40,462 nt of DNA from contig JAAZPQ010000145.1 of assembly GCA_012797175.1 (NCBI GenBank), forward strand, positions 1-40,462, read 5' to 3'. This document shows, piece by piece, positions 2,199 to 37,548 of this stretch. The position numbers and the translations under genes are program-made. The notes below the pieces were generated by a model. That model saw nothing but the letters and a program-made list of their open reading frames with translations. It did not search any database and was not told the DNA's origin. This DNA is from Bacillota bacterium. GTDB taxonomy: Bacteria > Bacillota > Dethiobacteria > DTU022. Positions within the stretch are counted from its first letter, which is position 1; each line of letters opens with the position of its first letter.

Positions 2199-3581
2199 TT
2201 ACAGTTCCCTAAACAAGGTCTCGAGCATGCGGTCAATATAGCCGATAAAGCTGGCCGCCGCCTGCCAGGCATACCCATACTGGATCATATTCAGCGTCTC
2301 TTCGTCGAGATTGACCCCGGTAACCGATTGATGCCGGGACTGCAGCTGGACGGTGGTCTCCTTAAAGGCCTCGGCCATCCGCCGGCTCTCCCGCCCCTCG
2401 ACGCCTAGACTGGAGATTAACCCCCGGTAACCGTCCATCAGCGAAACGCTACCCCCGCCCAGAACATTTTCGCTACTTAAGCGGGCGATCTGCAGCGCAT
2501 TTTTCCCGTTTCCAGGCTCACCGGGGGCGGTAGAGGCGGCGATGGCGGTGATATCATCAAGCACGGCTTCGTCTAACTTGAACTGCAGGGCAGGCGGGAC
2601 GCCGTTATTATCAATCTCTACAAAAAAATTTCGCCCGGTCTCTTCATCCAGGCCGTACCCGGAGCAATGGAGCATGTTCAGCTCTTTTACCAGGCAGGAG
2701 ACGATCTCGTTGAGCTGCTCCTGTAGCCCGGGAATAATCTCATTAACCGCCTCCAGCAGCCCTTTAAGCCGGCCGGAGCGCAGCTCCAGGGGAAGCCCCC
2801 GCGAGCTGACCAGGTTTAATTGGCCTCCTTCGGCCTGTAAGCTAAGAGCGTAGTGCTGCTGGTCCTGGACCAGGAGCCGGCCCCCGGCAAAAATCTCTAC
2901 CGCACCGCTGTTTTTCCGGTAAACCCGGATATCAACCAGCCCGGAAAGCTGCTCCAAGACCAGATCCAGCTGGTCCAGCAGCGCATTGGGGCTCTCGCCA
3001 AGAGCCCCGGCGAAGATAATGTGCTCATTGATCGCCGCGGCCTCCGCGGCCAGCTGGTTGACCTCTTGAACCCGCTTAGCCAGCTCATTTTTCAGCCCAA
3101 CTTGTAAATCGGTCAGCCTTAAGTAGGTATCCTGCACCGCATCGGTAAACGAGATCGCCTGCTCGCGCAGGCTCATCCGCACCGCGGCGCTCTCTGGAGA
3201 GCCGCTGAGCTCCTGCCAGGAATCAAAGAAGTCATTTAAGTAGCCGCTGAGCCCATTCTCCCCGGGCTCCATAAAGATTACCTCCGCCCCCTGGAAGGCC
3301 TCCGCGCGCATCTCCCAGTAAGAAAGGTAGGAACCTGAGCTCATCGCCTGGGTATGGTAAAACTCGCTGCGCACCCGGGTAATAGCGGTAATCTCGACCC
3401 CGTAGCCGGGAACAAGCGAAAGCCCGGTCGTTAGCGCCGGCACCGCCGGGGCCAGCTCTACCCGCTGGCGGCTGTAGCCGGGGGTATTGGCATTGGCCAC
3501 GTTCTGGCCGCTGACGGCCATCCCCATCATTTGGGCCCTGAGCGCGCTTCTTCCTGTTTCGATCGAGCCAAATATGGTCAT
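2199..3581 (-). CDS. flgK: Flagellar hook-associated protein 1
   Basis: GQNVANANTPGYSRQRV; C-terminal SVTGVNLDEE..NMIQY..AWQAAA. Confidence 0.95.
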   Translation of the reverse strand: MTIFGSIETGRSALRAQMMGMAVSGQNVANANTPGYSRQRVELAPAVPALTTGLSLVPGYGVEITAITRVRSEFYHTQAMSSGSYLSYWEMRAEAFQGAEVIFMEPGENGLSGYLNDFFDSWQELSGSPESAAVRMSLREQAISFTDAVQDTYLRLTDLQVGLKNELAKRVQEVNQLAAEAAAINEHIIFAGALGESPNALLDQLDLVLEQLSGLVDIRVYRKNSGAVEIFAGGRLLVQDQQHYALSLQAEGGQLNLVSSRGLPLELRSGRLKGLLEAVNEIIPGLQEQLNEIVSCLVKELNMLHCSGYGLDEETGRNFFVEIDNNGVPPALQFKLDEAVLDDITAIAASTAPGEPGNGKNALQIARLSSENVLGGGSVSLMDGYRGLISSLGVEGRESRRMAEAFKETTVQLQSRHQSVTGVNLDEETLNMIQYGYAWQAAASFIGYIDRMLETLFREL

Positions 3582-3593
3582 TGTTTTTCTCCC

Positions 3594-4070
3594 TTAGCAG
3601 TTTTGATCTAAACCGGGCCGGATACTACCAGCCGGGCTGCAGATCTCTCCGCGGCGGTTATAGGTAGTTTTACCGCCAGGCCAGATATCTTGCCACCCGG
3701 GGATTACAAGAGAGCCGCCCTCAACGAGGCGGCGATTAACCTCTTGCCTGACTTTAACCGCAGAAAGCTTCTCCCGGAGCAATTCATAGCGGGCCAATTT
3801 CAAAGAGCGCCCGGCGTCTTCTTCCTGCCGCTCGATTAGCTCCCGTATCGTTTTCTCCGCCGCCAGCTTCCTCTTCCGCTCAATGAACCGCTCCCCCCGG
3901 CGCAGAATTTCAGCCCTGGCCTCTACTACAGCCTCCAGCCCCGGTAAATCCATGCAGACCAGCTTGCGCTGGAGCTCCTCTTCCAGCCGGTCGAGCGCCT
4001 CCGCTACCTGGAGCCCCTCTTCCAGCAGGTGGTCTAAATCTCTGGCAAGGTCGCCCGGTTGACCGTCCAT
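3594..4070 (-). CDS. flgN: Flagellar export chaperone FlgN (YvyG-like)
   Basis: Helical 158-aa protein between flgM and flgK with EVNRRL and TTYNRRG motifs. Confidence 0.75.
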   Translation of the reverse strand: MDGQPGDLARDLDHLLEEGLQVAEALDRLEEELQRKLVCMDLPGLEAVVEARAEILRRGERFIERKRKLAAEKTIRELIERQEEDAGRSLKLARYELLREKLSAVKVRQEVNRRLVEGGSLVIPGWQDIWPGGKTTYNRRGEICSPAGSIRPGLDQNC

Positions 4071-4382
4071 CTATTTATCTTCTCCCGAAGAGGGCTTTGC
4101 CGCAGAACGCAACATCGCCTCGGCCAGTTTCCGCGGGTCAACCTCGTAAACGCCGCTGTTAATCTCTTCCTCCAGCCTCTTTAACCGCGCCAAATCGGCC
4201 GGCCCGCCCTTCTCTTCCAGGCGCTCCGCTTCCTGCAGGGCAGCCACCAGGTTGGAGAGCTCGCGGCGATCGCTTTGCGCAGCCCGCGGCGGGGCGCCCT
4301 TCTCACCCGGCCGGGGTTGAATCTTCTGTTCAGGCCCACGGAGCCAATTCAGGAGTAATCTGGATAAAGAGTTAACTTCCAT
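4071..4382 (-). CDS. flgM: Anti-sigma-28 factor FlgM
   Basis: C-terminal RL..LEEEINSGVYEVDPRKLAEAML; own sigma-28 promoter; abuts flgN. Confidence 0.85.
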   Translation of the reverse strand: MEVNSLSRLLLNWLRGPEQKIQPRPGEKGAPPRAAQSDRRELSNLVAALQEAERLEEKGGPADLARLKRLEEEINSGVYEVDPRKLAEAMLRSAAKPSSGEDK

Positions 4383-4442
4383 GATTGAAGCGTCACTTCC
4401 TTACAACAGGTATTAGCCTCTTCGTTGGGCCTCTACCTTACT

Positions 4443-4470
4443 TAATCGGCAACAAGAAAAATGTTTTAAG
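4443..4470 (-). promoter_or_regulatory. Sigma-28 promoter upstream of flgM
   Basis: Minus strand CTTAAA-N14-GCCGATTA, same geometry as the flagellin promoter. Confidence 0.75.
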
Positions 4471-4476
4471 GGAGGA

Positions 4477-6282
4477 TTATTTATCCCAGTGGCCAATCCT
4501 GATCTCACCCTCCTGGTCCCGGTAGAGCTTGATATTGCTTAAATCTTTCTTTAGGCAGAGCTCTGCCTTGCCGATCTTTATTCTTGTGTTTTCGTAAACC
4601 CGGCCCAGATAAACCCGGCTCCGGCTAGCGGTTTCAATTAAGCCCTGCGTCTTGGCCAGCCTGGGGATGCCGGCTTCACCGATATAGATATCACCACCGG
4701 CCTTGATGCTCCCCCCCCTGAAGATGCGCTTTATATGAACCTGGCCACCGCAGTTAAAAAAAGAGTTATAGGCGCCGGTCCCGTGAACATAGATATCGCC
4801 GGGGCAGGCCAGGCTGCTGTTCTGGAGATAGTACACCGAAATAGCAGCATCGCCTGGAGCAGCCACTGACCACCGTTCCCGGTTCTGCTCGAGCAGCCCG
4901 GAGAGCTGCTCTAACTTGGCCAGGGTAAGGAGCTGCCCTCCGCCCTGCAGGTAGCGGTGACAGCTTTGCAGGGCGGCCTGGAGAGGCTCGGGCAGCATCC
5001 GGGCCAGCTCCCGGCTTAATCTCAGGGCCTTCTCGCCCTGCTCCGGCAGCTCGGGGAGCTTTTTCTGGATCAGTGATCGCAGCATGATATTTATCTGGGC
5101 CTCCGAATACGAACCCCGCTTCTGCAACTCTCCGACTAGCTCTCGCCCCATGTTTAAAGCCAGGTTAAAATTTTCAGTTAGTTCATCGTAAAGCCGGCTG
5201 AACTCTTCTACCTGGAGGGCCTGCCATCCAGCCCGGGCCTGGCATTTCACACAGTTGTTTTTAAAGATTATGCTCCCCCCGGCGGTTATCTCAGCGCCAA
5301 AGGCATGCCCATCAATCTCAATATCGCGGTCGGCCTTAACCCGCAGCCCCTCTTTAATTCCCCCTTCAATCTTTAAATGACCTTTAAAGTCGATATGGCC
5401 GCTTTTAATATCAACATCGCCCCGGTGGTAATAGATACTATCTACCCGCATTAAAACCCGCTCTCTCCGCCGGTAGTAAACAGGCACCCCGCTGCTTGAG
5501 GCGACCACTTCAGTTTGATCGGCGCTGATTACCACCCCGTATTCGCAGTAGATCTTTGCAGGGTAAACCGGTTCGGGGGAAACCTCTTCACCGGTTACCA
5601 TCAGGCCCGGCTCACCGGGCTGGGGCGGATGGATCCGGGCGATCACCCGGCCCTTTTCTACCTGCGGTATTTCATAACGCCTGAAGTAATCTACCTGCGC
5701 TTCATTTTGGTCATAGCTGACCTGTTGCAAACCTTCTTTAAACAAAAATTCTACATAACCGTTCCGCCCCTGAACCAGAGGCCGCCCTCTCGCAACCACC
5801 TGCCACCGGCCCGGCTCGGAGAGCAGCCCGGGTAAAGCCGACTCATCGAGGCCATAAACTACACCGCTCGCCTGTAGAATATTCCTAATCTCCCCTGGGG
5901 AGAGGTCCGCTGCCGAGCCGGCGCTCTCTTCTGTTTTGTTGGCGGTAATGATCAGCCGGGAGGTAGGCGGATGATCCGGGATCGTATAGCGGATCTCTTG
6001 AGGAGAAAGGTAAACCGCTTCTGCAGCCATCTTGTCTGCAGCTACTTTTACAGCGACCCGGGCCGGCTCTTGCAGGTGAAGAGCTTCAACCTCTACCTTA
6101 TCCCGGGGATAAACCTGGCAGCTGTCCTTAACCTCTTCTCCGTTTACCCGCAAGATTACCCCTTCGCCCGGGACGATCACCGCCCCTTTGCCGGCACTTT
6201 CTTCAGCCGGGCCAGATATAATCACTTCTCCGGAGGAAATCTCTGCCAAGCACTGCTGTTCGCTAATTTTTCCCAGTTCCAT
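4477..6282 (-). CDS. FapA / DUF342 family flagellar assembly protein
   Basis: GVVYGLDE, P..G.NGYVEF, G..VTGEEV.P, GDVDIKSGHIDFKG beta-helix repeats; start reassigned from 6432 to ATG 6282, which has a GGAGG RBS and avoids overlapping the upstream gene. Confidence 0.85.
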   Translation of the reverse strand: MELGKISEQQCLAEISSGEVIISGPAEESAGKGAVIVPGEGVILRVNGEEVKDSCQVYPRDKVEVEALHLQEPARVAVKVAADKMAAEAVYLSPQEIRYTIPDHPPTSRLIITANKTEESAGSAADLSPGEIRNILQASGVVYGLDESALPGLLSEPGRWQVVARGRPLVQGRNGYVEFLFKEGLQQVSYDQNEAQVDYFRRYEIPQVEKGRVIARIHPPQPGEPGLMVTGEEVSPEPVYPAKIYCEYGVVISADQTEVVASSSGVPVYYRRRERVLMRVDSIYYHRGDVDIKSGHIDFKGHLKIEGGIKEGLRVKADRDIEIDGHAFGAEITAGGSIIFKNNCVKCQARAGWQALQVEEFSRLYDELTENFNLALNMGRELVGELQKRGSYSEAQINIMLRSLIQKKLPELPEQGEKALRLSRELARMLPEPLQAALQSCHRYLQGGGQLLTLAKLEQLSGLLEQNRERWSVAAPGDAAISVYYLQNSSLACPGDIYVHGTGAYNSFFNCGGQVHIKRIFRGGSIKAGGDIYIGEAGIPRLAKTQGLIETASRSRVYLGRVYENTRIKIGKAELCLKKDLSNIKLYRDQEGEIRIGHWDK

Positions 6283-7400: not shown

Positions 7401-10112
7401 TTATATGGTCTGACGGTTGATTAAACCCCGGCGGGCGGCAAGAAGCTGCCGCCAGCGGGCTTCGCTTAAGGGACGGTCAAAACTGCGCAGGTCGGCCAGC
7501 CTAAAACCGTGGCGGGCGGCCCACCGGCGCGTCTGTAAAATCGATTCCAGGTTGACCCCCGTGGAGCCGAGGCTGAAATGCTCGTAGCGGCGCTCCAGCG
7601 CCAGCATCACGGTTTCAGCCATGCAGGCGTAAGCCAGCCCCGGCGGAAAACCAAAGTCCCAGCCCAGGTCAGGACGCCCGGGCAGCTCGACCACCCCGCC
7701 GTCGATAACCAGCACGTCGGGGCGGGTCTGCTCAACATCTGCGCTGACATTGGGCGGCCTTGAAATATCGCAGACCACCGCCCCCGGCTGGAGATCTTGA
7801 GGCCGGATCAGCTTACTGCGGCTGTTAGTGGCGCTAATGACAATCCCGGCTCGCGGGAGCGCCTCTTGCACAGAGGTAGTGATCTGGATCGGCCCTCCAC
7901 GGCGGGCGGCGGAGCGGGCGAAGGTGATAAAATCATCGAGAGGCGCCTCCGGCGGGGGCAGCTCTTTACAGTCCGCAAGGTAATCACCGATGCTACCGCC
8001 CGGCAGCCGGCAACCAGCCTGCAGCAAACCGGCAAGGTAACGGTAAATCTCTGCGGCAACCCCCAGCATCCGCCGGCTACCGGTGCTTTTATGGTTGCTA
8101 TGCGGATTTCCAACCAGGATCAGCCCGCCCACCGCCTCGGAGAGAAGCAGGGCCATCCCCCTGCCGATCGATCCAGCAGCCCCGATGATCGCCGCAGTGC
8201 TGTACTGCGGCAAGACCTTAATCTTATCACAGGCCGCCTGGACCGCCTCCACCGCCGAGACGACGGTATAGCTATTGCCGGTCGTCAGCGGAACTCCCTC
8301 CTCTTTCAGGTAGAGCCCGCCCCCGGAGGCTACGGCGGTGTAGGCGCCCAGGCCGACAACGCCGGCGCCACCTTCCCGGGCCAGGTTCAGCGCCTGCCGC
8401 AGCTCCTGCTGCGCCTGCGCCCGGGACATTTGCACCAGCTCTCCGGCCGTGCGCGGCACGACGATAAATTCACCGCAAGCGCTCCGGCCATCCTTTGATC
8501 TTATCCTCACCCGGGAGATCACAAAAGGCTGCACCAGGCTGCTCCACTTTTGGGCCAGGATAGCAAGCTCGTCTTCGCTGAATAGTAACAGGCTTTGATC
8601 AAATTGAGGGTAACTCTGCAGATCAAGAGGGTGAACCAGAAAAGCAAAACGGCCCACGTCGCTTGTAGTAGCCGCAGCGCCCACGGCAGCGGCCCCGTTA
8701 TCCGCCCTCTTTAAAAGAGCCGTTTCTGCCGTTCTTGGCGAGCCGGCAGACGGTGCCGGCTCCGGGACTACCGTTTTCTCCATTTCGTCCCCGCGGGGAA
8801 ACTCTTTGGAAACTAAAAATGAAAAGAATTTCGCCGCGTTTGCTTCGTTCAACACGGCCAGCATATCGGCAATGCCCACCAGGATACGGCGGCACTGCGC
8901 AGCGGTAATCGTAAGCGGCGGCTCGATGCGGATAACGCTGCCGCCGTTTAGCGTAGGCGCCACGCGGATCTTCTCCCGGTTCAACAGGTAGGCGGAGACC
9001 GCCGAGGCGAGAAGCTCCTGTTCGGCGGTAACCCCGAGCAGGCTGCCGGCAAAATAGCCCCTATCGACACCGAGCTCCAGGCCGAGCATTAACCCTCTCC
9101 CGCGCACGGCACTAATGATCTGCGGGTATTCCCTGTGCAGGGACTCCAGCCCCTCCTTCAAGAGGGCCCCCTGCTCCCGGGCAGCATGCAGCAGCGCGCC
9201 GCCGTTTGAGGTAAGCTGCTCCAGCACCCGCAGGCCTACCCGGCAGGCGAGGGAATTTCCGGCAAAGGTTGATGAATGCTTCAGGGCAAAATCGGCGTTG
9301 TAAGCGGCGACAGTGCTGAGGCAGGCGCCGATAGGCAACAGGCCGCCTCCTAAGGCCTTGGCCAGCAGCAGCAGATCGGGGGTGACCCCTTCTTCTTCGC
9401 AAGCAAAAAGGTGTCCCGTCCGCCCCAGGCCGGTCTGGATCTCATCCACCACCAGGAGAACCCCGTAGCGCTCGCAGATCTCTTTAGCCCCGGCAAGGTA
9501 GCCGGGCGGCGGGACGACAATTCCGCCTTCGCCCTGGATCGGCTCGACAATGAAAGCAGCATAAGCCTGGGGTGCTTTAGCAAGTTTATCTTCAAGTGCG
9601 TCGAGAACGCCGTATTCAACAAAGTCAAATCCTTCCGCCGGAGCGCCGAAAGGCGCCTGGTAAGCCGGGTTCCCGGTAGCGGAGAGCGCCCCGAGAGTTT
9701 TACCGTGAAAGCTGTTCTCTGCCGCTAAAATCCCTTGGCGCCCCGTGGCCGAGCGGCAGAGCTTCAGCGCCGCCTCCACCGCTTCGGCGCCGCTGTTAGT
9801 AAAGGTAACGTAGCGCAAACCGGGCGGGGCCAGCTCTACCAACCGCCGCGCCAGCTCCCCGGCGGCATCGAGAAATGAAGGCTGGACAAAATTAGGCTCC
9901 CCGGAGTGGCGAAAATCAGCCACGGCCTCCCAGATACTCGCCGGGTTATGCCCGAAAGGCAGCGCCCCGTAAGCGGCAATGCAATCGAGGTAACCATTGC
10001 CGTGGTCATCGTAAAGGTAGCAGCCCTCTCCCCGGACAAAGGTTTTATCCAGAGCCACGTTATGCAGCAGCTCGCCTAAATAAGGATTAAGATACTCAGT
10101 AAATGGATGCAT
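7401..10112 (-). CDS. Class III PLP aminotransferase fused to an acyl-ACP reductase-like domain (TamH-like architecture)
   Basis: N-half: NSGAEAVEAALK, SFHGKT, EPIQGEGG, DEIQTGLGRTG, LAKALGGG (PLP Lys). C-half: FAFLVHP, VGLGAYT, TTGNSYT, IIGAAGSIG Rossmann, DGGVVE, YACMAETVML (AAR catalytic-Cys motif). Start reassigned from 10151 to ATG 10112 (GGGAGG RBS). Confidence 0.85.
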   Translation of the reverse strand: MHPFTEYLNPYLGELLHNVALDKTFVRGEGCYLYDDHGNGYLDCIAAYGALPFGHNPASIWEAVADFRHSGEPNFVQPSFLDAAGELARRLVELAPPGLRYVTFTNSGAEAVEAALKLCRSATGRQGILAAENSFHGKTLGALSATGNPAYQAPFGAPAEGFDFVEYGVLDALEDKLAKAPQAYAAFIVEPIQGEGGIVVPPPGYLAGAKEICERYGVLLVVDEIQTGLGRTGHLFACEEEGVTPDLLLLAKALGGGLLPIGACLSTVAAYNADFALKHSSTFAGNSLACRVGLRVLEQLTSNGGALLHAAREQGALLKEGLESLHREYPQIISAVRGRGLMLGLELGVDRGYFAGSLLGVTAEQELLASAVSAYLLNREKIRVAPTLNGGSVIRIEPPLTITAAQCRRILVGIADMLAVLNEANAAKFFSFLVSKEFPRGDEMEKTVVPEPAPSAGSPRTAETALLKRADNGAAAVGAAATTSDVGRFAFLVHPLDLQSYPQFDQSLLLFSEDELAILAQKWSSLVQPFVISRVRIRSKDGRSACGEFIVVPRTAGELVQMSRAQAQQELRQALNLAREGGAGVVGLGAYTAVASGGGLYLKEEGVPLTTGNSYTVVSAVEAVQAACDKIKVLPQYSTAAIIGAAGSIGRGMALLLSEAVGGLILVGNPHSNHKSTGSRRMLGVAAEIYRYLAGLLQAGCRLPGGSIGDYLADCKELPPPEAPLDDFITFARSAARRGGPIQITTSVQEALPRAGIVISATNSRSKLIRPQDLQPGAVVCDISRPPNVSADVEQTRPDVLVIDGGVVELPGRPDLGWDFGFPPGLAYACMAETVMLALERRYEHFSLGSTGVNLESILQTRRWAARHGFRLADLRSFDRPLSEARWRQLLAARRGLINRQTI

Positions 10113-10162
10113 AGTTTTCCTCCCAGCGCCTGTGCACATTTTTGTGCGCATGTTCTTTCTCC

Positions 10163-10191
10163 ATTCTACCGGATCTCCTGCCCCTTGGCAA
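10163..10191 (-). promoter_or_regulatory. SigA-type promoter of the fusion gene
   Basis: TTGCCA-N17-TAGAAT on the minus strand about 50 nt upstream of ATG 10112. Confidence 0.65.
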
Positions 10192-10193
10192 GA

Positions 10194-10226
10194 GGTGACA
10201 GGGGGACGTTTCTCTTGTCACCTAAA
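10194..10226. repeat. 33-bp palindromic REP-like repeat, copy 1
   Basis: GGTGACAGGGGGACGTTTCTCTTGTCACCTAAA is the exact reverse complement of 23387-23419. Confidence 0.9.
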
Positions 10227-10256: not shown

Positions 10257-10280
10257 CGGGGCGGCGCATGCGCCGCCCCG
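10257..10280. repeat. Perfect 24-bp palindrome
   Basis: CGGGGCGGCGCATGCGCCGCCCCG. Confidence 0.8.
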
Positions 10281-13079: not shown

Positions 13080-15452
13080 TTAATCCTGCCGCTCTTTTTT
13101 CAGATCTAGCCCCCGGAGAAGGTTTTTCTGCATAATCAAGATCAGCGCCGGAGGGACTACATAGAGAAGCAGCGTTGCCGCAGCAACTACCCCGGAATCG
13201 TTTGTCAGCAGGGCGGCGGCGGCACCGGCCAGGGCGGCTCTTACGCCGGTAACCAGGTAAGGCTGCTCCTCCCGCAGCCGCTTCCAGAGGCCGACCGGGT
13301 AAAACGAAAGAACTGCGCAGAGCCCGACCAGGGTGACAAAAGCCCGGCTCCAGATAGAATAGCGTACCAGCCTTAGATTCATCCTCATTTTACGCAAAAC
13401 CGTCTCCCAGAAACCAGCCGGACCGCGTAAGCGGACCATCTCTCCAAAGAGTCCGACATGAGAGGGCAGCAGCCGGGGATGATAGATATTCAACAACCAG
13501 AGCAGCCCTAAGGTGAAGAACAGAAAGAGAGCCACGCTGAACGCTGCCCTCTTCTTACACCCGCTAACCGGCCCGGTGAGCCCGGATAAACCGGCCCACG
13601 ATGCTCCGAAAGCTACCGCCGCCGTCAGGCTTCCGCCAAGGTTGGCTCCAAAATTCGGCGCAGCCAGAACAAATATGATGATACCATAAAAAAGTAAGAT
13701 CGCCCCGCCCAGCAAGAAGGATACCCTTTTTGATCGCAGCCCTCTCTCCGGCAAAGAAGACGGCCCGGTGGCAAAGGCGGCCAGAGAACGCGTCCCCAGT
13801 AAAGCCGACCCGATCAGCACCCCCATGTATTCATTACCAATCCCGTAGTAGCGCGCCCCGCCAACGGTGTCGTAACTGAACAAAGAGAGCTGCTGCAGAG
13901 GGGCCCCGGCCAAGGTATCAACAAGCAGGGCCAGGGCAATAGAGCAGCCGAGCAGGGCCCAGTACAGAAGCTGTTCTCTGTTTGCCAGAGGATGCAGCAG
14001 CACCGCAGGTAGCAGGGCCGCCCCGCCAAGAAGCAGCCCGCTGTGCAGTAGCGAAGGTAGCGGAAAGCGAACCGGACCGGGGAGCAGCAGCAGCACCAGG
14101 GGAATAAGAAGCAGCAGCTCGATCAGCCAGGAGGCCGGTCGCAGGGCTGAACGATTTTTTAGAAGTAGCCCCACCAAGGCGGCCAAAAGTACCACTACCA
14201 GGGCGGCAATATAGCCTTTCAGCAGTGCGGGACGTTGGTCGAAGACCAGTGCGGTCCGGTTATTGAAAAGCTCTAAAAAGGTCAGCGGTTTTTTTTCCGG
14301 GATGATCCTGAAGGAGGCGACCGAGTAAAAAGCAGCCGCACTGTTTCTACTATCAAGTAAAGAGATGATTAGCGAAGCGAGGTCGGTATTCTGGACCAGC
14401 CCCGGGCGGCGGGTAGAGGCGCTGCCGAGCAGCCCGGGCCCGGGGCCGCCGGCGGTAACCAGAAGTAAAGGAGTAAGCTGATCTCCGCCGGTAGGACGGT
14501 TCAACGGCAGAGAGGGTGCCGTCACGAGCAGCAAGCTGTTCTGATCAAGCAGTGGTAATAGTTTCCCGATCAGTAGATCTAGATGTTCCATGGTCAGCTT
14601 GAAAAGCGCTTCCCCTCTTGCCGGGTTCAGCTGCGGCCAGTAATCATCGAGGCGGGTGCTGTCCCCGAATTCGACCAGGTGCAGGCTGGCCGCTTCGATA
14701 TTTGCAGCTACGGTGCCAGCGATCTTATCAATATCTGTCCGCACCCCATAAGGGAAGAGAGGAGCATTTTGCAGCAGATCGGCCCCTACCGCCCCGGCGG
14801 GGACTTCTCCGCCGGAATCCATGGCTATGAGCACTGCGCTGCGGTTTGGTGTAGCCGCGTCGGCGTTACCCCAAACTGCTGCGGTTAAACCTTTCTCTTT
14901 CAGCATCTCCCCTAATAACCCTACTGTAACCGGGTAGGAGAGGGTGCTGTTTTTCTTTTGCAGTGCGGCGGCCTGGAGATGAAAAAGCGCCCCGGCAGGG
15001 TCATTTCCGGTGCAGCGCTTAAAAACTACTTCAGCCTTTTCTCCTTCGATCAGCTCCCCCCTGCCAAAAGCGCTTCTCCCTTCCGGGCCAGCTACCGCCC
15101 GGGCGGCGGTGCCGAGGCTCAGATAGCCGCTCTCGCTACCCGCCTTTCCGCTGCGCACGTTCATCAGGGCCACCGCCTCCTGCTCGAGAAGTTGAGAGAG
15201 GTTCGGCCCCGCCCCGCACAGCAGATCGCTATAAGTAAGCCGGTCCGCCAGCAGCAGAATAACCCGTCTCTCTTCTTCTCCGTTTTCGGCAATGGCAAAA
15301 GGGCGCCACGGCTCCGCCTGATCGCGAATCCACTGTGCGACCATGAAAAGAACTAAGGAGAGCACCACCGCCGCCGCAACCAGGGCGGTTAAAAGCTCTC
15401 TGTTCAGGCGCAGCCCCTTGGAGCCCGGTCCCGGCCTCTCTTTTTGAATCAC
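13080..15452 (-). CDS. Large polytopic membrane protein with an extracytoplasmic alkaline-phosphatase-like domain
   Basis: N-terminal TM segment, soluble domain (LLLADRL, SGYLSLG, STRRPGLVQNTDLA), about 10 C-terminal TM segments containing GGARYYGIGNEYMG and LLTNDSGVVAA; likely GTG start at 15452 overlapping the GT4 stop (ORF track start 15500). Confidence 0.7.
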   Translation of the reverse strand: MIQKERPGPGSKGLRLNRELLTALVAAAVVLSLVLFMVAQWIRDQAEPWRPFAIAENGEEERRVILLLADRLTYSDLLCGAGPNLSQLLEQEAVALMNVRSGKAGSESGYLSLGTAARAVAGPEGRSAFGRGELIEGEKAEVVFKRCTGNDPAGALFHLQAAALQKKNSTLSYPVTVGLLGEMLKEKGLTAAVWGNADAATPNRSAVLIAMDSGGEVPAGAVGADLLQNAPLFPYGVRTDIDKIAGTVAANIEAASLHLVEFGDSTRLDDYWPQLNPARGEALFKLTMEHLDLLIGKLLPLLDQNSLLLVTAPSLPLNRPTGGDQLTPLLLVTAGGPGPGLLGSASTRRPGLVQNTDLASLIISLLDSRNSAAAFYSVASFRIIPEKKPLTFLELFNNRTALVFDQRPALLKGYIAALVVVLLAALVGLLLKNRSALRPASWLIELLLLIPLVLLLLPGPVRFPLPSLLHSGLLLGGAALLPAVLLHPLANREQLLYWALLGCSIALALLVDTLAGAPLQQLSLFSYDTVGGARYYGIGNEYMGVLIGSALLGTRSLAAFATGPSSLPERGLRSKRVSFLLGGAILLFYGIIIFVLAAPNFGANLGGSLTAAVAFGASWAGLSGLTGPVSGCKKRAAFSVALFLFFTLGLLWLLNIYHPRLLPSHVGLFGEMVRLRGPAGFWETVLRKMRMNLRLVRYSIWSRAFVTLVGLCAVLSFYPVGLWKRLREEQPYLVTGVRAALAGAAAALLTNDSGVVAAATLLLYVVPPALILIMQKNLLRGLDLKKERQD

Positions 15453-16645
15453 CGCTTTTCTTTTGCTCCCGAAGAAGTAGCCAGTTCTGAAACCCGGCAC
15501 CGCGAACCGGCAAGCAGCTGCTCGTAAAGGGATGCTGTCCGGGAAAGCATCCGCTCAAGGGTAAATTGAGCCTTGACCCGTTCGCGGCAGGCCCGCCCCA
15601 AGCGGCGGGCCTGCTCCGGATCGCGGGCCAGGGAGGCGATAGCCCGGGCCAAGGCGGCAACGTCGGCTGGTGGAACGAGAAGACCGTGCACGCCGTCAGT
15701 GATCACCTCAGGAATACCGCCGACTCGCGACGCCACCACAGCGCATCCTGAGGCCGCCGCCTCCAGAACGGTAAGCGAAAACCCTTCGGTCAACGAAGGA
15801 AGGACAAAGATATCGATACCGGCCAACCGGCGCGGCAGGTCGGTGCAGTAACCGGAAAATGAAAGTCGGCGGCCCAATCCCAGCTGCCGGGCTAGCTTCT
15901 CCAAGGCGGGACGGCCGGGACCGTCACCGATAATCAGAAAGCGCATCTGCGGAAAAAGTGGCGCCAGAACAGCAGCGGCCTTCACAAAATAGGAGAGCCC
16001 TTTTTGGGGAGCAAAGCGGGCCGCCGTGCCGACAAGTAGTGCATCTTTGCTCTGGCTGCGGGAAAACCTCTCCGCGGCAGCAGTTTCAAACGGTGCCGGA
16101 TCAATGCCGTTATGGATCACGCTGATCTGCTCCTGGAGAATACCCTGGGCGGCAAGTTCATCGGCCAGGGTGTTGGAGACAGCCACATAGTGAGCCCCCG
16201 GCGCCCCCAACAACCTGCCGGCGGCCGGTAGGTATGGAGAGGCCCGGTGGGCCGGGTAATTATGCACTGTGATCAGCACAGGGACCCGGGCCAGGCGTGC
16301 CGCGGGCAATCCGGTCAACGCCGCTTTGAACCCGTGGATATGCAGCAGGTCCGGACGAAGCGTGCGCAATAACCCGTAGAGCTGCCGGAAGGTGAACAGA
16401 TCGCCTACCGGGCTAACCCCCCCGGAGAGAGGCAGGTTGAAGGAAGAGACGGCAGGAAGCCCGGCCAAGAAGGCCGGCTCATTTTCCGGCGGCAACCCCA
16501 GATAGAGAGAGTATTCCCGGCTAAAACGGCTCAGCAATTGCCGCAGATGGGCCTGCATGCCCCCGGAAGCAGGCCGGATTAGGTAAAAGATACCACTTTT
16601 TGCCGCGCAGCCATCCCCTTCGCCCCTCTTCACCTGCAACCGCAC
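15449..16645 (-). CDS. Glycosyltransferase family 4 (GT-B)
   Basis: HIHGFKA, VIHNGID, FVLPSLTEGFSLTVLEAAASG, VASRVGGIPEVITDGVHGLLVPP. Confidence 0.92.
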   Translation of the reverse strand: MRLQVKRGEGDGCAAKSGIFYLIRPASGGMQAHLRQLLSRFSREYSLYLGLPPENEPAFLAGLPAVSSFNLPLSGGVSPVGDLFTFRQLYGLLRTLRPDLLHIHGFKAALTGLPAARLARVPVLITVHNYPAHRASPYLPAAGRLLGAPGAHYVAVSNTLADELAAQGILQEQISVIHNGIDPAPFETAAAERFSRSQSKDALLVGTAARFAPQKGLSYFVKAAAVLAPLFPQMRFLIIGDGPGRPALEKLARQLGLGRRLSFSGYCTDLPRRLAGIDIFVLPSLTEGFSLTVLEAAASGCAVVASRVGGIPEVITDGVHGLLVPPADVAALARAIASLARDPEQARRLGRACRERVKAQFTLERMLSRTASLYEQLLAGSRCRVSELATSSGAKEKR

Positions 16646-25927: not shown

Positions 25928-27400
25928 ATGATAAATAAATTTATTAAAAAGGAGATTTGGGGATTGTCCAAGGCAAACCAGCCCCCCCCGGCCGGGGCCC
26001 TCCGGGCAGGCTGGCTCAACCGCAGCGCCATCGTCCTGGGTAAAATGCTCATTGGCGCCACCCGCCTGCTTAAACAGGGCGGCACGACCCTGCCTGGAAG
26101 GGCCGCCCTCAAAATTTCACCGCAGCTGACCTCTTACCTGGCCGGGCAGCTGCCTGCAGGGACGATCGTCATTACCGGAACTAACGGTAAAACGACCACC
26201 GCCGCATTGCTGGCGGCGGTCTTTAAACAGGATGGCTGGCGCTGCGTGCATAACGAAGCCGGCTCCAACCTGGACTGGGGAATCGCCTCAACCCTGATTG
26301 AGGCCAGCACCTGGAAAGCGGAACTGCCCGCAGAGATCGCTGTTCTGGAGATCGATGAAGGTGCCTTTCCAGCAATGAGCGTAAGCCTGCAGCCTCGCGC
26401 CGCCGTAGTTACTAATATTTTTCGGGACCAGTTAGACCGCTTCGGCGGAGTCGAACAGGTCCAGTCGGCGATTCAAAGAGGCGTGCAAGCCCTGCCTCCC
26501 GAAGCGTTAGTTTTCTTAAATGCCGATGACCCCCTGGTCGCCGCTATCGACGGGGGCTCCCGGGAAACTTTTTACTACGGCCTGGAGCTACCCCCTTCCG
26601 CGATTAGCGGACTATCTCCGGCAGAAAAGCCAGAAGTGGCCTGTCCCCGCTGCCGCCGGGAGCTACTTTATACCCACATCTATTTTGCCCACCTGGGCCG
26701 TTACCGCTGCCCTTCCTGTGGTTTTCACCGGCCCGAGCCCATCTTCAAGCTGCGCCAGCTTGAGCTCTCTTCCGAAGAAGGCACCGCTATAAAGATGAGC
26801 CTGCGCGGTAGCCCGCTCCGGGCAACGCTGCCCCTACCCGGAATCTACAATCTTTACAATGCCCTGGCCGCGGCGGCCGCCGCTTCAGCTTTCGGCCTTT
26901 CGGGTGCAGCGGTCCAGGAGGCCCTTGGCAATGCCGCTCCGCCCTCCGGCAGGATGGAGCGCCGCCGCATCGCCTCCAGAGAACTGCTTATCGCCCTGAT
27001 TAAAAACCCGGCCGGAGCAAACCAGGTGCTGCAGACCCTGCTCCAAGAAAAACAAGAGCGGCAGATCCACCTTCTTATCGCGATCAATGATCATCCTGCC
27101 GACGGCACCGATATCTCGTGGCTCTGGGAAACAGATTTTGAACAGTTGGCCGCGGCCCGCGCGCAGATCGGCAGTATAACCATCTCCGGAACCAGGGCCC
27201 CGGAGACAGCCCGGCGGCTTGAAGAAGCTGGGCTCTCTCCGGACAGGATGACCGTGGAACCGGCGCTGCCGCGGGCCCTGCGGCAGGCTCTCCTCTCCAC
27301 CGCACCTGGTGAAAAATTAATTGTTCTGCCCAATTATACAGCCATGCGGCAGCTACAGCGAAATCTTGACCGGATCATGGCTGAACCGTCGTCTCAGTAG
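25928..27400 (+). CDS. murT: MurT-like Mur ligase with DUF1727 domain (lipid II isoglutaminyl synthase subunit)
   Basis: GGTTLPG, ITGTNGKTTT, TNIFRDQLDRFG, CPRC...C.SCG zinc ribbon, GIYNLYNALAA, KNPAG, NDHPADGTDISWLW, LPNYTAM. Confidence 0.88.
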   Translation: MINKFIKKEIWGLSKANQPPPAGALRAGWLNRSAIVLGKMLIGATRLLKQGGTTLPGRAALKISPQLTSYLAGQLPAGTIVITGTNGKTTTAALLAAVFKQDGWRCVHNEAGSNLDWGIASTLIEASTWKAELPAEIAVLEIDEGAFPAMSVSLQPRAAVVTNIFRDQLDRFGGVEQVQSAIQRGVQALPPEALVFLNADDPLVAAIDGGSRETFYYGLELPPSAISGLSPAEKPEVACPRCRRELLYTHIYFAHLGRYRCPSCGFHRPEPIFKLRQLELSSEEGTAIKMSLRGSPLRATLPLPGIYNLYNALAAAAAASAFGLSGAAVQEALGNAAPPSGRMERRRIASRELLIALIKNPAGANQVLQTLLQEKQERQIHLLIAINDHPADGTDISWLWETDFEQLAAARAQIGSITISGTRAPETARRLEEAGLSPDRMTVEPALPRALRQALLSTAPGEKLIVLPNYTAMRQLQRNLDRIMAEPSSQ

Positions 27401-27568
27401 CCATCTAATTCCATCAAGTTACTAACTTTTTGATTAAGCAGTAAGGGTGCCCCCATCTAAATTTCGATGACTAATAAGACATTTTTATTTTTTATGCAGG
27501 AATTATATCACAATTCGCGAATGTTTCTTGAGTATCTCCTTTTGTTAGATTAACCTTAAAGAAGGAAG

Positions 27569-28354
27569 GTGAAGAAAGTGAATAAAGATCAAGCCATGGT
27601 GCTGGCACGTTTGCATCTGGGGGCAATCCTTCCCCTTCTTGAGGATATAGCAGCCTACGATGACCCTACTCGCAAAGCAATCGCCAATTGGGATTTTCCC
27701 CTCCAGTTCCGCCTTGCCGGTGGTGAACCGGCAACTACCCTGGTATTTGAAAAGGGATCTGTCACGGCACACCGCGGTAAATTTAAGGGCTACCCCCCCG
27801 CCCTGACTTTTAAAGACGCCTCCTTCCTAAACGAAGTTTTCCAGGGCAAGACAGAAAAAAACCCCACACCGAACCTGCCGGGCATCTTCAAAGCCAAGCA
27901 ACTGCTGCAAGTTGACGAAGTCTTGGGACGACTTGAATACTATTTAAAACCGGAACCAGAGCTACTGGCCAACCCCGATACATTTGCTTTCTGTGTCCGG
28001 ATAACCCTTTATGCTACTGCTTTCGGGATAAAAGAAGTCGGAGAGCATGACCTTGAAGTGCGCCCTATTGCCCTGGATCTGCCTGACGGTACCGTCGAGA
28101 TGCGGGTGGCGGATGGCCCCGCAGCCCATCTTATAGTTAAAAAAGGCAATTTCGAACCCTGGCGCGGACCGGCCCAAAAACCTAATGCCATTCTTGAGTT
28201 CAACAATCTGCAGACAGCCTGGGATACCTTCCAGGGTAATCTTGATACCTTTGCCGCTATCGGCAACGGTAAAATAAAGCTGCGTGGGTTTATCCCCCTT
28301 ATCGAAGGGATCAACCCGCTTATGGACCGATTGGCCTATTACCTCTCCGATTAG
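27569..28354 (+). CDS. Tandem SCP2-like (lipid-binding fold) protein A
   Basis: Two repeats of the SCP2 pattern (QFRLAGGEP.TTLVFEKG...; VEMRVADGPAAHL.VKKG...); C-terminal G.LDTFAAIGNGKIKLRG. Confidence 0.65.
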   Translation: MKKVNKDQAMVLARLHLGAILPLLEDIAAYDDPTRKAIANWDFPLQFRLAGGEPATTLVFEKGSVTAHRGKFKGYPPALTFKDASFLNEVFQGKTEKNPTPNLPGIFKAKQLLQVDEVLGRLEYYLKPEPELLANPDTFAFCVRITLYATAFGIKEVGEHDLEVRPIALDLPDGTVEMRVADGPAAHLIVKKGNFEPWRGPAQKPNAILEFNNLQTAWDTFQGNLDTFAAIGNGKIKLRGFIPLIEGINPLMDRLAYYLSD

Positions 28355-28382
28355 AAAATAGAATTGGAGGAGGAGCAATACG

Positions 28383-29633
28383 ATGAGCAAAGTTACCGAG
28401 AAACTCTACAGTTTTGATAAATCAATGGCGCTTTTTGCCCGGGCCGCCGAGGTCATCCCCGGAGGAATTTACGGGCACTTTTCACCGACACTAACTGTTC
28501 CCGGTTCATTCCCCTACTATACAGCAGAAGCTAACGGCTGCCGTTACACCGACGTGGACGGCAACGAGTTTATTGACTATATCTGCGGTTACGGACCGAT
28601 GGTCATCGGCTACCGGAACAAAGCGATCGACGAAGCCGCTGCGGCTCAGCAGGCCCTGGCTGACTGCACCAACCACCCCGGCGAGGTGATGGTGAAGCTG
28701 GCCGAGCGCCTGATAGAGCTGATCCCCACTGCCGACTGGGCTTTTTTTGGCAAAAACGGCGGCGATATGACCACCTATGCCACCCTGGTAGCGCGGGCTT
28801 ATACCAACCGTAAAAAGATCATCATGGTGCGCGGCCATTACCACGGCGTGGCTCCCTGGTGCACAGGGCTTGGTTTCGGGGGGATCACCCCTGAAGATCA
28901 TATACACATTCTCCAGGTCAACTGGAACGATCTGGACGGGTTTGAGAAGCTGGTTCGGCAATACCGGGGCGAGATCGCCGGCTTTATCGCTCAACCGTAC
29001 CACCATATCAATTTTGGAGACCAGGTCATGCCGGCTCCCGGTTACTGGGAAGGGATTGAGCGAATCTGCCGCGAAGAAGGCATTGTCCTCATTCTAGACG
29101 ATGTCCGTGCCGGTTTTCGCCTCAGCATGAAGGGATCCGGCGATTACTTCGGCTTCAAGCCCGACCTGAGCTGTTATTGCAAAGCGATAGCCAACGGCTA
29201 CCCGATCTCAGCCTGCGTCGGACGCAAGGAGCTGATGAATGCCGCTTCGAAGGTCTTCTTTACCGGCTCCTTCTGGACCGCCCAGGTGGCAATGGCCGCC
29301 TCTCTGGCCACCTTGCAAGAGCTGGAAAAAACCAACGCTATTGAGAAAATGAAAGAAAGCGGAACCTTGCTTATGGATGGGCTTAAAGAGCTGGGCAACC
29401 GCTACGGCCTCGAGGTGACCACATCCGGTCCGCCGGCGATCCCGTTTATGCGTTTTACCGAAGATCATGATTTTTACTGGCAACAGGTCTTCTGCTCTGA
29501 AGTAACCAGGCGGGGTTCTTTCTTCCACCCCCATCACAACTGGTTTATCTCGGCGGCTCATGAAAAGGAGGATATCGAGGAGACTCTTAATCATGCTGAA
29601 GCGGCCATAAAGGTACTGAAAAAGAAGATTTAG
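28383..29633 (+). CDS. Class III PLP aminotransferase, GSA-aminomutase-like but not HemL
   Basis: DVDGNEFIDY, GHYHG, LILDDVRAGFR, CKAIANGYPI; IPGGIYGHFSP replaces the HemL GGVNSPVRAF motif. Confidence 0.85.
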   Translation: MSKVTEKLYSFDKSMALFARAAEVIPGGIYGHFSPTLTVPGSFPYYTAEANGCRYTDVDGNEFIDYICGYGPMVIGYRNKAIDEAAAAQQALADCTNHPGEVMVKLAERLIELIPTADWAFFGKNGGDMTTYATLVARAYTNRKKIIMVRGHYHGVAPWCTGLGFGGITPEDHIHILQVNWNDLDGFEKLVRQYRGEIAGFIAQPYHHINFGDQVMPAPGYWEGIERICREEGIVLILDDVRAGFRLSMKGSGDYFGFKPDLSCYCKAIANGYPISACVGRKELMNAASKVFFTGSFWTAQVAMAASLATLQELEKTNAIEKMKESGTLLMDGLKELGNRYGLEVTTSGPPAIPFMRFTEDHDFYWQQVFCSEVTRRGSFFHPHHNWFISAAHEKEDIEETLNHAEAAIKVLKKKI

Positions 29634-29675
29634 CGCCAGGGATGTTTATAAACTAAGTAAGGAGGTAAAAACCAT

Positions 29676-30518
29676 ATGCCGTTAACCGAACAGGAGATAG
29701 CCTTTTTAAAGGAGAAGGCCTGGTTAATCAGGCGCAACACTGTTAAAACCATGCTGTGGGCCGGCGGCGGCCACGCCGGGGGAGGCCTTAGCCAAACCGA
29801 CATCCTGGTTGCACTCTACTACCACTATTTGAAAATAGATCCCAAAAACCCGGATTGGGAAGACCGCGACCGGGTCATCTTGAGCAAGGGTCATGGCGGG
29901 ATCGGCTTCGCCCCCATTCTAGGGGATCTCGGGTATTTTGACGAAGAGATGCTCAAGGAATTCAACCATACCGGTTCTCCCTTCGGGATGCACCTCGATA
30001 TGCGCCAGGTCCCCGGGGTCGATGCTTCGACCGGTTCTCTCGGGCACGGCCTGCCCATCGCCGTAGGGATGGCCCTGGGGGCGCGCCTGAAGAAGAAATC
30101 CTGGCGGGTCTACTGTATCATCGGCGACGGAGAATGCCACGAAGGCTCGATCTGGGAAGCAGCCATGAGCGCCGCCCATTACAAGGTAGATAACCTTACC
30201 GCATTCATTGACCGCAACAAGCACTGCATTGACGGTCCCACTGAGAACATAATGAGCCTGGAGCCGCTGAAAGAGAAGTGGATTAGCTTCGGCTGGCATG
30301 CTCTCGAGATCGACGGCCATGACTTTGCCGAAATTGGCAACGCCATTGAAGAAGCTTTACAAACCTCCGGTCGCCCGACCGTGATTATCGCCCACACGAT
30401 CAAGGGGAAAGGCGTCGACTACATGGAAGATGACCCGGCCTGGCATTACGGCGGGATCGACTCGGACGGATTAGAAAAAGCCTTAGAATCAATCGACCGG
30501 ATGTACGGTAAGGCGTAG
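29676..30518 (+). CDS. Split transketolase, N-terminal (ThDP-binding) subunit
   Basis: GHAGG, DRVILSKGH, STGSLGHG, GDGECHEGSIWEA...DRN, AHTIKGKGV. Confidence 0.92.
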   Translation: MPLTEQEIAFLKEKAWLIRRNTVKTMLWAGGGHAGGGLSQTDILVALYYHYLKIDPKNPDWEDRDRVILSKGHGGIGFAPILGDLGYFDEEMLKEFNHTGSPFGMHLDMRQVPGVDASTGSLGHGLPIAVGMALGARLKKKSWRVYCIIGDGECHEGSIWEAAMSAAHYKVDNLTAFIDRNKHCIDGPTENIMSLEPLKEKWISFGWHALEIDGHDFAEIGNAIEEALQTSGRPTVIIAHTIKGKGVDYMEDDPAWHYGGIDSDGLEKALESIDRMYGKA

Positions 30519-30550
30519 GCCTACCACACCGCTGAAAGGAGGAGCTTAAC

Positions 30551-31558
30551 TTGAGTACAGGTTTAACCTATCATACTTACGATACAGACCATATGACCCC
30601 GGCAGAAATCTATGGGCATGTCCTTGCCGAGCTCGGTGAGGAGAGAGAAGATATTGTCGGCCTGACCGCCGACCTGGCCAAGTCCACCAAGATCGGCAAG
30701 TTCGGCAACAAATTTCCCGAGCGCTTCTTTAACGTAGGCATCGCCGAGCAGAATCTCTTCGGGATGGCTGCAGGCCTGGCCCTGGCTGGATTTACCCCCT
30801 TTGTCTCTACTTTCGCCGTCTTTGCTTCGCTGCGGGCGGGGGAGCAGGTGCGCACAGACATCTGCTACATGAAGCTCAACTGCAAGATCATCGCCACCCA
30901 CTCGGGGATCTCTTTCGGCCAGGCGGGCTCAACGCACCACTGCAACGAAGACCTGGGAGTAATGCGAACCTTCCCCAATATGACGGTAATCGCCCCCGCC
31001 GACGGCTACGAGACCGCCAACGCGGTGATCGCCAGCCTTGATCGTCCCGGCCCGGTCTATATCCGGATTGGGCGCGGCTTTGAGCAGACCGTTTACGAAA
31101 GCGCAGATTACGGCTTTGAAATTGGCAAGGCGGTGACGATGCATGAAGGATCGGATATCACCGTAATGGCCATCGGACCCTGTGTTTTGCATGCTCTGGA
31201 GGCGGCAAAACGGCTGAAAGAGCAAGATATCTCGGTACGGGTCTTAAACATGCACACAATCAAACCGATTGATAAAGAAGCGGTTTTCGCCGCGGTCAAC
31301 GACACGCGTAAGATCATTACCGTGGAGCCGCATAACATTTACGGCGGCCTGGGGACCGCCGTGGCCGAGACCATCACCGAAGGCGGCAAGTCTTGCGCGC
31401 TCAAGCGCCTGGGGCTACAAGATGAGTTTGCCATTGTCGGCTACACCGATGACCTTTACAGCTACTACAAGCTTGATGATAACGGGATCATGGAGGCCGT
31501 TAGCGATATGCTCGGCCTCGAAGTAGAAGAAGATGAAGACTGGGAGGACGAGATTTAA
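30551..31558 (+). CDS. Split transketolase, C-terminal (pyrimidine-binding) subunit
   Basis: ADLAKST, FFNVGIAEQN, FAVFASLRAGEQVR, GPVYIRIGR, NMHTIKPID; TTG start with AGGAGG RBS. Confidence 0.92.
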   Translation: MSTGLTYHTYDTDHMTPAEIYGHVLAELGEEREDIVGLTADLAKSTKIGKFGNKFPERFFNVGIAEQNLFGMAAGLALAGFTPFVSTFAVFASLRAGEQVRTDICYMKLNCKIIATHSGISFGQAGSTHHCNEDLGVMRTFPNMTVIAPADGYETANAVIASLDRPGPVYIRIGRGFEQTVYESADYGFEIGKAVTMHEGSDITVMAIGPCVLHALEAAKRLKEQDISVRVLNMHTIKPIDKEAVFAAVNDTRKIITVEPHNIYGGLGTAVAETITEGGKSCALKRLGLQDEFAIVGYTDDLYSYYKLDDNGIMEAVSDMLGLEVEEDEDWEDEI

Positions 31559-31577
31559 GAAAGGAGGCCGACTCTGT

Positions 31578-37494: not shown

Positions 37495-37548
37495 AATTAA
37501 GCGGTGCCCGTCCCGCAGCCATATTCTACAGTAAGGAGAGATTAAAGA

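Follow-up and report, generated by a model that had tools for sequence, protein, structure and literature searches.

The window analysed here, that is the whole 40,462-nucleotide contig JAAZPQ010000145.1 of a Bacillota bacterium (GTDB lineage Dethiobacteria, DTU022; assembly GCA_012797175.1), encodes a fusion of a class III aminotransferase and a thioester reductase of the AAR family (acyl-ACP reductase; ACP, acyl carrier protein). We find that this fusion gene is not an orphan and that it is part of a conserved two-locus regulon, together with a helix-turn-helix (HTH) protein, a protein that we call c17 and an AAR-like paralogue. Newly found here are the conserved operator and the wiring of the fusion to the c17/AAR-like operon. 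On balance, we favour reading the protein as a TamH-like bifunctional enzyme that is repressed through this operator and that would convert an acyl thioester, probably a fatty one, via the aldehyde to a primary amine.

Domains, gene model and known relatives of the fusion

The first-pass annotation had described an intact class III pyridoxal phosphate (PLP) domain, an Ala/Pro linker and a second domain with AAR motifs, which together gave the architecture of TamH, a transaminase followed by an AAR-type thioester reductase. Our analysis agrees with this description in all parts (Table 1). The nearest solved folds for the N-terminal domain are YgjG and the aminotransferase domain of PigE (36–38% identity), and the domain carries the 'FHGKT' motif (K138) that is also found in PatA/YgjG. 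The linker varies in length among homologues and is modelled as disordered. For the C-terminal domain, matches were obtained to the reductase domain at the N-terminus of PigE (4PPM; E 3e-29, HMMER against PDB), to the AAR of Synechococcus (6JZQ/6JZU; E 1e-13), where it covers AAR residues 32–188 and 209–336, and to the model TIGR04058 (E 9e-19). The 'YACMAE' of the fusion aligns with the 'FACFAE' of AAR, and Cys830 is thus the counterpart of the catalytic Cys294 of AAR. Furthermore, K252, TTGNSYT, GAAGSIG and C830 are invariant in all 19 homologues compared, which are 55–84% identical. When the full-length model was searched with Foldseek, the top 50 matches were all aminotransferases and none had the AAR fold; the fold of the reductase is therefore assigned from sequence evidence.

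The minus-strand open reading frame (ORF; 7401..10151) would give 916 amino acids. The true start is the ATG at 10112, as in the first-pass annotation, because it is preceded by a Shine-Dalgarno sequence and lies in a conserved block ('GGGAGG...ATGCATCCAT') that is kept in the upstream alignment of five close relatives, whereas the alternative ATG at 10151 sits within the operator, and relatives do not keep it as a start. The gene had also been proposed to have its own promoter, and we find a predicted sigma-70-type promoter downstream of a hairpin with which the preceding M16-peptidase operon ends. A scan for terminators with a T-run did not pick up this hairpin. In the upstream alignment of six relatives, conservation is limited to the −35 box, the −10 box, the operator, the Shine-Dalgarno sequence and the start codon. 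Directly upstream of the −35 box there is also an inverted repeat, AGGTGACA-N15-TGTCACCT (10192–10222, minus strand), which is not kept in the five closest relatives. A riboswitch or leader RNA was considered and rejected, as Rfam gave no match at the gathering threshold upstream of the fusion; a weak sucC-like match (E 0.13) overlaps the terminator hairpin.

Table 1. Positions of the fusion gene, its domains and signals, and of the second locus of the regulon
Feature	Sequence	Position	Strand	Remarks
Fusion gene P0001, 903 aa + stop	window	7401..10112	−	class III aminotransferase, linker, AAR-family thioester reductase
Aminotransferase class III domain, residues 25–417	window	8862..10040	−	Pfam Aminotran_3, E 3e-87
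PLP Lys252 codon	window	9357–9359	−	invariant, within 'LLAKALGGG'
Interdomain linker, residues 437–483	window	8664..8804	−	Ala/Pro/Gly-rich; pLDDT < 50; alignment gaps
AAR-family thioester reductase domain, residues ~484–903	window	7404..8663	−	profile matches and motifs
TTGNSYT, residues 610–616	window	8265–8285	−	
GAAGSIG (GxxGxxG motif), residues 644–650	window	8163–8183	−	
Cys830 codon	window	7623–7625	−	predicted catalytic Cys
Shine-Dalgarno GGGAGG	window	10119..10124	−	6 nt before ATG 10112
Operator-like palindrome TGCGCACAAAAATGTGCACA, 20 bp	window	10131..10150	−	consensus TGTGCACA-N4-TGTGCACA; between −10 box and Shine-Dalgarno
Predicted promoter TTGCCA-17 nt-TAGAAT	window	10163..10191	−	sigma-70-type; −35/−10 kept in 6 relatives, flanks not
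−10 box TAGAAT	window	10163–10168	−	
GC-rich hairpin CGGGGCGGCG-CATG-CGCCGCCCCG	window	10257..10280	−	read directly from the sequence
HTH-c17-AAR-like operon	contig C77 (L091)	2812–5412	−	between dusB and greA-lysS
P0124	C77 operon			small HTH protein
P0123 (c17)	C77 operon			299 aa; NCBI label 'quinate 5-dehydrogenase'
P0122	C77 operon			354-aa AAR-like paralogue

Among the closest described enzymes are the stand-alone Bacillota fusions TfFusion, TmFusion and TsFusion, which Prout, Hailes & Ward cloned in 2024 from Thermincola ferriacetica and two species of Thermaerobacter, T. marianensis and T. subterraneus (PMC10829540). These proteins have about 870–950 residues, and their AAR-type Cys and NADP motif have been mapped. 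By described architecture and motifs, the window protein most likely belongs to the same family. The first-pass annotation had not recognised fatty amines or an amine-linked membrane lipid as a product of anaerobic Bacillota. As three Bacillota homologues have been cloned and their transaminase activity measured, the design of the enzyme is not new. The three fusions accept aromatic as well as linear aliphatic aldehydes for transamination and prefer L-Glu as donor, and in vitro their transaminase domains preferred linear aliphatic aldehydes (PMC10829540). They were studied purely as biocatalysts, and physiological role and regulation were not addressed there.

TamH of Pseudoalteromonas tunicata (PtTamH), from the tambjamine YP1 pathway, likewise consists of a class III PLP transaminase, a linker and an AAR-type reductase with GxxGxxG and a catalytic Cys (C887, equivalent to C294 of AAR), and it takes a thioester via the aldehyde to a primary amine, converting a C12 acyl chain bound to the ACP part of TamA (PMC9594044). 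Unlike the window protein, it needs the acyl group on this dedicated ANL-ACP protein and sits in a 19-gene pigment cluster. We compared TamH by description; the published identity between PtTamH and the Bacillota fusions is 28–32% (PMC10829540).

PigE of Serratia, from the 2-methyl-3-n-amylpyrrole (MAP) branch of prodigiosin synthesis, reduces a thioester and then transaminates the resulting compound (PMC8341465). It has both catalytic modules and is the best sequence match for each (38% identity for the aminotransferase). However, its reductase precedes its transaminase and its substrate is a 3-acetyloctanoyl thioester of a pigment pathway. The PigE model NF053554 is the best NCBIfam match of the fusion, but with 541.5 bits it stays below the cut-off of 850, and the match is split into three pieces because the domain order is inverted.

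Cyanobacterial AAR (6JZQ/6JZU; PMC7089970) is homologous over nearly the whole reductase domain, including the counterpart of Cys294, the Rossmann motif and TTGN. The fusion lacks the Fr-IV loop with Met279 and has Arg785 in place of Tyr247, and its TIGR04058 score (68 bits) is far below the cut-off of 449.7. From these comparisons, the reductase domain is a homologue of AAR and not an orthologue. AAR itself is a stand-alone enzyme with a ping-pong acyl-enzyme mechanism, which hands its aldehyde to aldehyde-deformylating oxygenase (ADO). ADO depends on O2 and is not expected in an anaerobe.

For the N-terminal domain, the closest solved fold is YgjG/PatA (4UOX; 36% identity), which shares an 'NSFHGK(S/T)LGALSAT' block with the fusion but is without a reductase domain. 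Both PatA models score below their cut-offs (NF008570, 318 against 612; TIGR03372, 297 against 659). With all equivalog cut-offs missed and neither a TamA partner nor a pigment cluster present, we conclude that the fusion is orthologous to none of TamH, PigE and AAR.

A conserved operator and replacement of the stand-alone reductase

To search for operators, a position weight matrix (PWM) was built from related sites and scanned over the whole genome (1.94 Mb). The site of the fusion, with one mismatch, scores highest in the genome (29.0 bits). The second-best site, TGCATACAAATATGTGCACA (21.7 bits), lies on contig C77 just after the −10 box of the HTH-c17 operon, and the reversed genome used as a control gave no match. 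The operator thus stands also before the operon of the HTH protein itself, which makes the fusion the second transcription unit of a small regulon. A wider regulon in this genome was rejected, as the four weaker PWM matches (contigs C45, C101, C92 and C223) and two further pattern matches (C129 and C27) are all intragenic. The first-pass annotation had regarded the gene as standing alone. This is right in that the genome encodes no TamA-like ANL-ACP, but the operator ties the fusion to the HTH/c17/AAR-like operon.

The operator is conserved in relatives. Across 69 related loci, which add up to 1.04 Mb, we counted 41 sites with at most two mismatches, and every one of them is located upstream of the fusion or of the operon that holds it: 26 within ~100 nt of the start, 14 further upstream and one beside a mis-called start. 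Counted by species, about 40 of 69 have the palindrome there. In those loci with a more distant site that we inspected, the site precedes the HTH gene of an operon with the order HTH, c17, fusion; this operon occurs in Symbiobacteriaceae, Peptococcaceae, Sporotomaculum and others. We also scanned 25 further genomes, most of them assembled in one or a few contigs, and found mostly one or two operator sites per genome. A site at the HTH-c17 operon or the fusion was present in 17 genomes, five had other or unplaced sites alone and three had none. The extra sites that were inspected (in G116, G124 and G165) are intragenic. A literature search for the motif TGTGCACA returned nothing relevant.

One genus, represented by genomes G132 and G261, has c17 and no AAR-like gene. 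Here, intergenic operators (G132:C1, L136–L138; G261:C1) stand before glyA and a gene for a ThrE-like exporter, before a BioF/Kbl-family PLP acyltransferase and a Zn-dependent dehydrogenase (Zn-ADH), and before a hotdog-fold protein and fhs (formate-tetrahydrofolate ligase). Two of these sites keep a spacing of ~2.16 kb in both species.

The AAR-like paralogue in the C77 operon, P0122, is degenerate: Trp replaces the catalytic Cys, and TTGN and the GxxGxxG (Rossmann) motif are lost. The copy in genome G294 likewise lacks the Cys, and in genomes that have both the fusion and a c17-adjacent AAR-like copy, that copy is degenerate. To count co-occurrence, we used an even set of 301 genomes of the window's phylum. 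In this set, 227 genomes have c17 and 199 have an AAR-like domain. A stand-alone AAR-like gene of 360–400 amino acids was counted in about 170 genomes, and it adjoins c17 wherever both positions could be compared. These stand-alone genes bear AYACMAET, GATGSIG and TTGN, which is the active-site signature of the fusion. The fusion was found in 30 genomes (~10%), 29 of which also have c17, and in 26 of the 30 no separate AAR-like gene was found. Thus, the fusion usually stands in for the Cys-bearing, stand-alone AAR-like reductase found after c17.

In a quick maximum-likelihood tree of the reductase domains, whose topology is provisional, the fusion domains form one clade (SH-aLRT 96) that is split from the stand-alone group by that branch. 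The degenerate copies have long branches and are nested beside stand-alone genes of the window's own family, and SeAAR and PigE's N-terminal domain are distant outgroups.

For c17, searches of PDB by sequence and by profile, of Pfam and of NCBIfam were all empty. Its model is confident (pLDDT 92), and the fold matches in PDB are to generic two-lobed Rossmann-like proteins with a TM-score of 0.3–0.4, so that no function was assigned from the fold. The idea that c17 is a Cys-less AAR paralogue was rejected as well (hhalign probability 0.4%). In a Bacillota metagenome contig (L094, 7027–7839), a pyrroline-5-carboxylate-reductase-like gene follows HTH-c17 in place of the AAR-like gene, and in locus L093 no gene is inserted after HTH-c17.

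Probable acyl source, proposed mechanism and alternative readings

At least 584 stretches among contigs from one genome per species encode a relative of the fusion. The best 80 relatives are mostly from Bacillota, and the closest among the matches listed (74–77% identity) come from uncultured metagenome-assembled genomes (MAGs) labelled Syntrophomonadaceae or 'Bacillota'. Other relatives belong to Dethiobacteria, Halanaerobiales, Symbiobacteriaceae, Peptococcaceae, Limnochordia, Sporotomaculum and Thermohalobacter, and members at 42–53% identity are found in Rhodococcus, myxobacteria, Planctomycetes, Acidobacteria and others. Cultured bacteria with the fusion include Thermincola ferriacetica, Sporotomaculum syntrophicum, Thermohalobacter berrensis and Symbiobacterium thermophilum. 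Between lineages, the genes around the fusion are not conserved. Of 76 loci, 18 have an M16-peptidase pair upstream, accompanied by proS and other housekeeping genes; we read the pair as lineage synteny and not as a functional partner.

Among the members at 42–53% identity, two proteins combine an AMP-binding (FAAL-like) domain, a PP-binding domain, an aminotransferase and an AAR domain in one polypeptide (L070, from a Pyrinomonadaceae MAG, 2151 aa; L058, from an Anaerolineae MAG, 1556 aa). Judged from their domains, each of these proteins would carry out every step from fatty acid to amine by itself. In other loci, the relative directly follows a FAAL (L072), a FAAL-ACP-KS-AT-ACP module (L067) or a DH-ER-KR-ACP module (L066). 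As clade members outside Bacillota are thus fused to, or adjoin, FAAL-ACP or polyketide synthase (PKS) modules, a carrier-bound fatty or polyketide acyl substrate is favoured.

The genome of the window has no dedicated carrier for such a substrate. The window encodes neither an AMP-binding protein nor an ACP, PKS or non-ribosomal peptide synthetase (NRPS), and it has no gene of a pyrrole pathway, in agreement with the first-pass annotation, which had also suggested a genome search for a TamA-like partner. This search found no TamA-like ANL-ACP in the whole genome (assembly 94.7% complete). None of the 15 AMP-binding (acyl-CoA-ligase-type) genes is fused to a PP-binding domain, and the sole PP-binding domain of the genome is AcpP in the fatty acid synthesis (FASII) cluster plsX-fabD-fabG-acpP-fabF. 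With AcpP as the only carrier and 15 genes of acyl-CoA-ligase type, acyl-AcpP or acyl-CoA is the likely acyl source.

We propose the following mechanism. The C-terminal domain would accept a thioester whose acyl group, most likely a medium- or long-chain fatty one, is carried by AcpP or coenzyme A (CoA). This group would be moved to Cys830 and reduced to the aldehyde at the expense of NAD(P)H. The PatA/PigE-like PLP domain at the N-terminus (Lys252) would then transaminate the aldehyde to a primary amine, probably with L-Glu as donor. The gene would be transcribed from its own promoter, with a start expected near 10156, and is probably repressed by the C77-encoded HTH protein at 10131–10150. 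The in vitro preference of the homologous transaminases for linear aliphatic aldehydes points the same way, to a substrate derived from a fatty or polyketide acyl group. The conversion of a fatty acyl thioester from the AcpP or CoA pools to an amine appears to us the most economical reading of the sequences. The first-pass annotation had proposed such a route from acyl-ACP or acyl-CoA to fatty amines. The architecture, the missing TamA and the relatives linked to FAAL-ACP or PKS modules agree with it, while the fatty substrate and the amine product are inferred.

Several observations weigh against this reading. These bacteria are not known to make fatty amines. No operator was found at the FASII cluster or at any other lipid gene of the genome. 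The extra sites in G132 and G261 point to amino-acid or C1 metabolism and not obviously to lipids. Moreover, Tyr247 of AAR is part of the acyl tunnel (PMC7089970), and the corresponding position is Arg or Lys (785) in the fusion clade and Leu in PigE. Lastly, TamH rejected free C12-CoA (PMC9594044), and reductase activity of the Bacillota fusions was not demonstrated by Prout et al. (PMC10829540).

Some of these observations would also fit the same chemistry on a small or polar acyl group, that is, a thioester or acyl-phosphate from amino-acid-type metabolism that yields a diamine, an amino alcohol or an omega-amino compound. We regard such a substrate as unlikely. It would agree with an aminotransferase domain that is nearest to putrescine aminotransferase (YgjG/PatA) and to acetylornithine and ornithine aminotransferases, with the conserved Arg/Lys785, with the operators before glyA/thrE-like, BioF/Kbl-family and Zn-ADH, and fhs genes in G132 and G261, and with the pyrroline-5-carboxylate-reductase-like gene after c17 in one locus. 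However, the argument from Arg785 is weakened because most of the FAAL-ACP- or PKS-linked members examined keep this Arg (L058 has Gln), and the characterised enzymes of the AAR family all act on C8–C18 acyl chains. The Lys of 'FHGKT' stands where the 'HGRT' of ArgD and GabT has a carboxylate-binding Arg, which fits amines without a carboxylate. This speaks against the polar substrates and against carboxylate-bearing amine products in particular; beta-alanine from a malonyl-thioester, an ArgC/ArgD-like acyl-phosphate and aminoacyl-tRNA were further ideas that we considered. The Bacillota homologues, in addition, favoured linear aliphatic aldehydes in vitro (PMC10829540).

The remaining alternatives concern direction, pathway and the role of the second domain. 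In a fatty-acid-degrading syntroph, the enzyme might be inducible and catabolic: an alkylamine or polyamine would lose its amino group to give the aldehyde, and the AAR-like domain would oxidise this to acyl-CoA for beta-oxidation. Both half-reactions are reversible in principle, the closest relatives bear the label Syntrophomonadaceae, the genome has 15 acyl-CoA-ligase-type genes and a dedicated operator suits an inducible function. We nevertheless give this reading little credence, since the FAAL-ACP and PKS fusions fix a biosynthetic direction in their part of the clade, the reductase replaced by the fusion occurs near-universally in the phylum and is not limited to fatty-acid degraders, and no amine transporter or beta-oxidation genes adjoin it. 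That only the aminotransferase works, while the C-terminal domain is a relic of structural or regulatory use, would be consistent with the reductase activity not demonstrated for the Bacillota fusions and with truncated, transaminase-only constructs that were as active as the full-length proteins (PMC10829540). Yet Cys830, GAAGSIG and TTGNSYT are invariant across homologues that are 55–84% identical, and the truly degenerate paralogues such as P0122 lose exactly those motifs, on long branches, which makes a relic very improbable. We consider it still harder to see the fusion as a tailoring enzyme of a pigment or alkaloid cluster of the tambjamine, prodiginine or koreenceine type. PigE as best NCBIfam match and the architecture of TamH might suggest this, but the window has no PKS, NRPS, ANL-ACP or pyrrole gene, the genome has one carrier protein, the neighbourhood is not conserved between lineages, and PigE differs in score, domain order and position in the tree.

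Further genes of the window and biological meaning

The neighbours of the fusion in the window are genes for M16 peptidases, a lipoprotein, ComFB, FapA and flagellar proteins. Just upstream of the M16-peptidase pair (13080–16645, minus strand), an 806-aa ORF without Pfam match overlaps a GT4 glycosyltransferase gene, and the two are apparently translationally coupled. A same-strand run at 25928–32351 (plus strand) has an unusual combination of genes for a MurT-like Mur ligase, a 261-aa protein without Pfam match, a second class III aminotransferase (416 aa, 28% identical to the aminotransferase domain of the fusion), a split transketolase (N and C halves) and a protein with an SCP2 lipid-transfer domain. 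At 36154–38682 (plus strand), two adjoining genes of the HGD-D family, of the 2-hydroxyacyl-CoA dehydratase or benzoyl-CoA reductase type, are followed by aspartokinase. Elsewhere in the genome (contig C103, 8255–9403, minus strand), a class III aminotransferase paralogue that is 41% identical to the aminotransferase domain of the fusion adjoins two acyl-CoA-ligase-type genes. It contains one in-frame TGA, which may point to a pseudogene, a selenoprotein or a mistake in the assembly.

While the design of the enzyme is known, and one protein leading from fatty acid to fatty amine is of interest for biocatalysis, it is the physiology that would matter, as the fusion has no dedicated carrier protein and is widespread in anaerobic Bacillota. 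The operator links it to an HTH/c17/AAR-like operon that is found in about three quarters of the phylum sample, and offers a simple experimental handle. A possible, though doubtful, extension of the fatty-amine reading is that the fusion does not belong to natural-product synthesis and instead serves as output step in an ancient and so far unrecognised core pathway in anaerobic Bacillota. In such a pathway of HTH repressor, c17 and AAR-type reductase, housekeeping acyl-ACP or acyl-CoA would be turned into fatty aldehydes and, in ~10% of lineages, on to free primary amines with a long chain or an amine-derived membrane lipid. If this were true, it would be a lipid class that has not been described in these bacteria. 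Identification of the substrate would assign a function to the large family that is mis-annotated as 'quinate 5-dehydrogenase', and might reveal the long-sought acyl-thioester reductase activity of clostridia and possibly a new class of amine lipids or signals.

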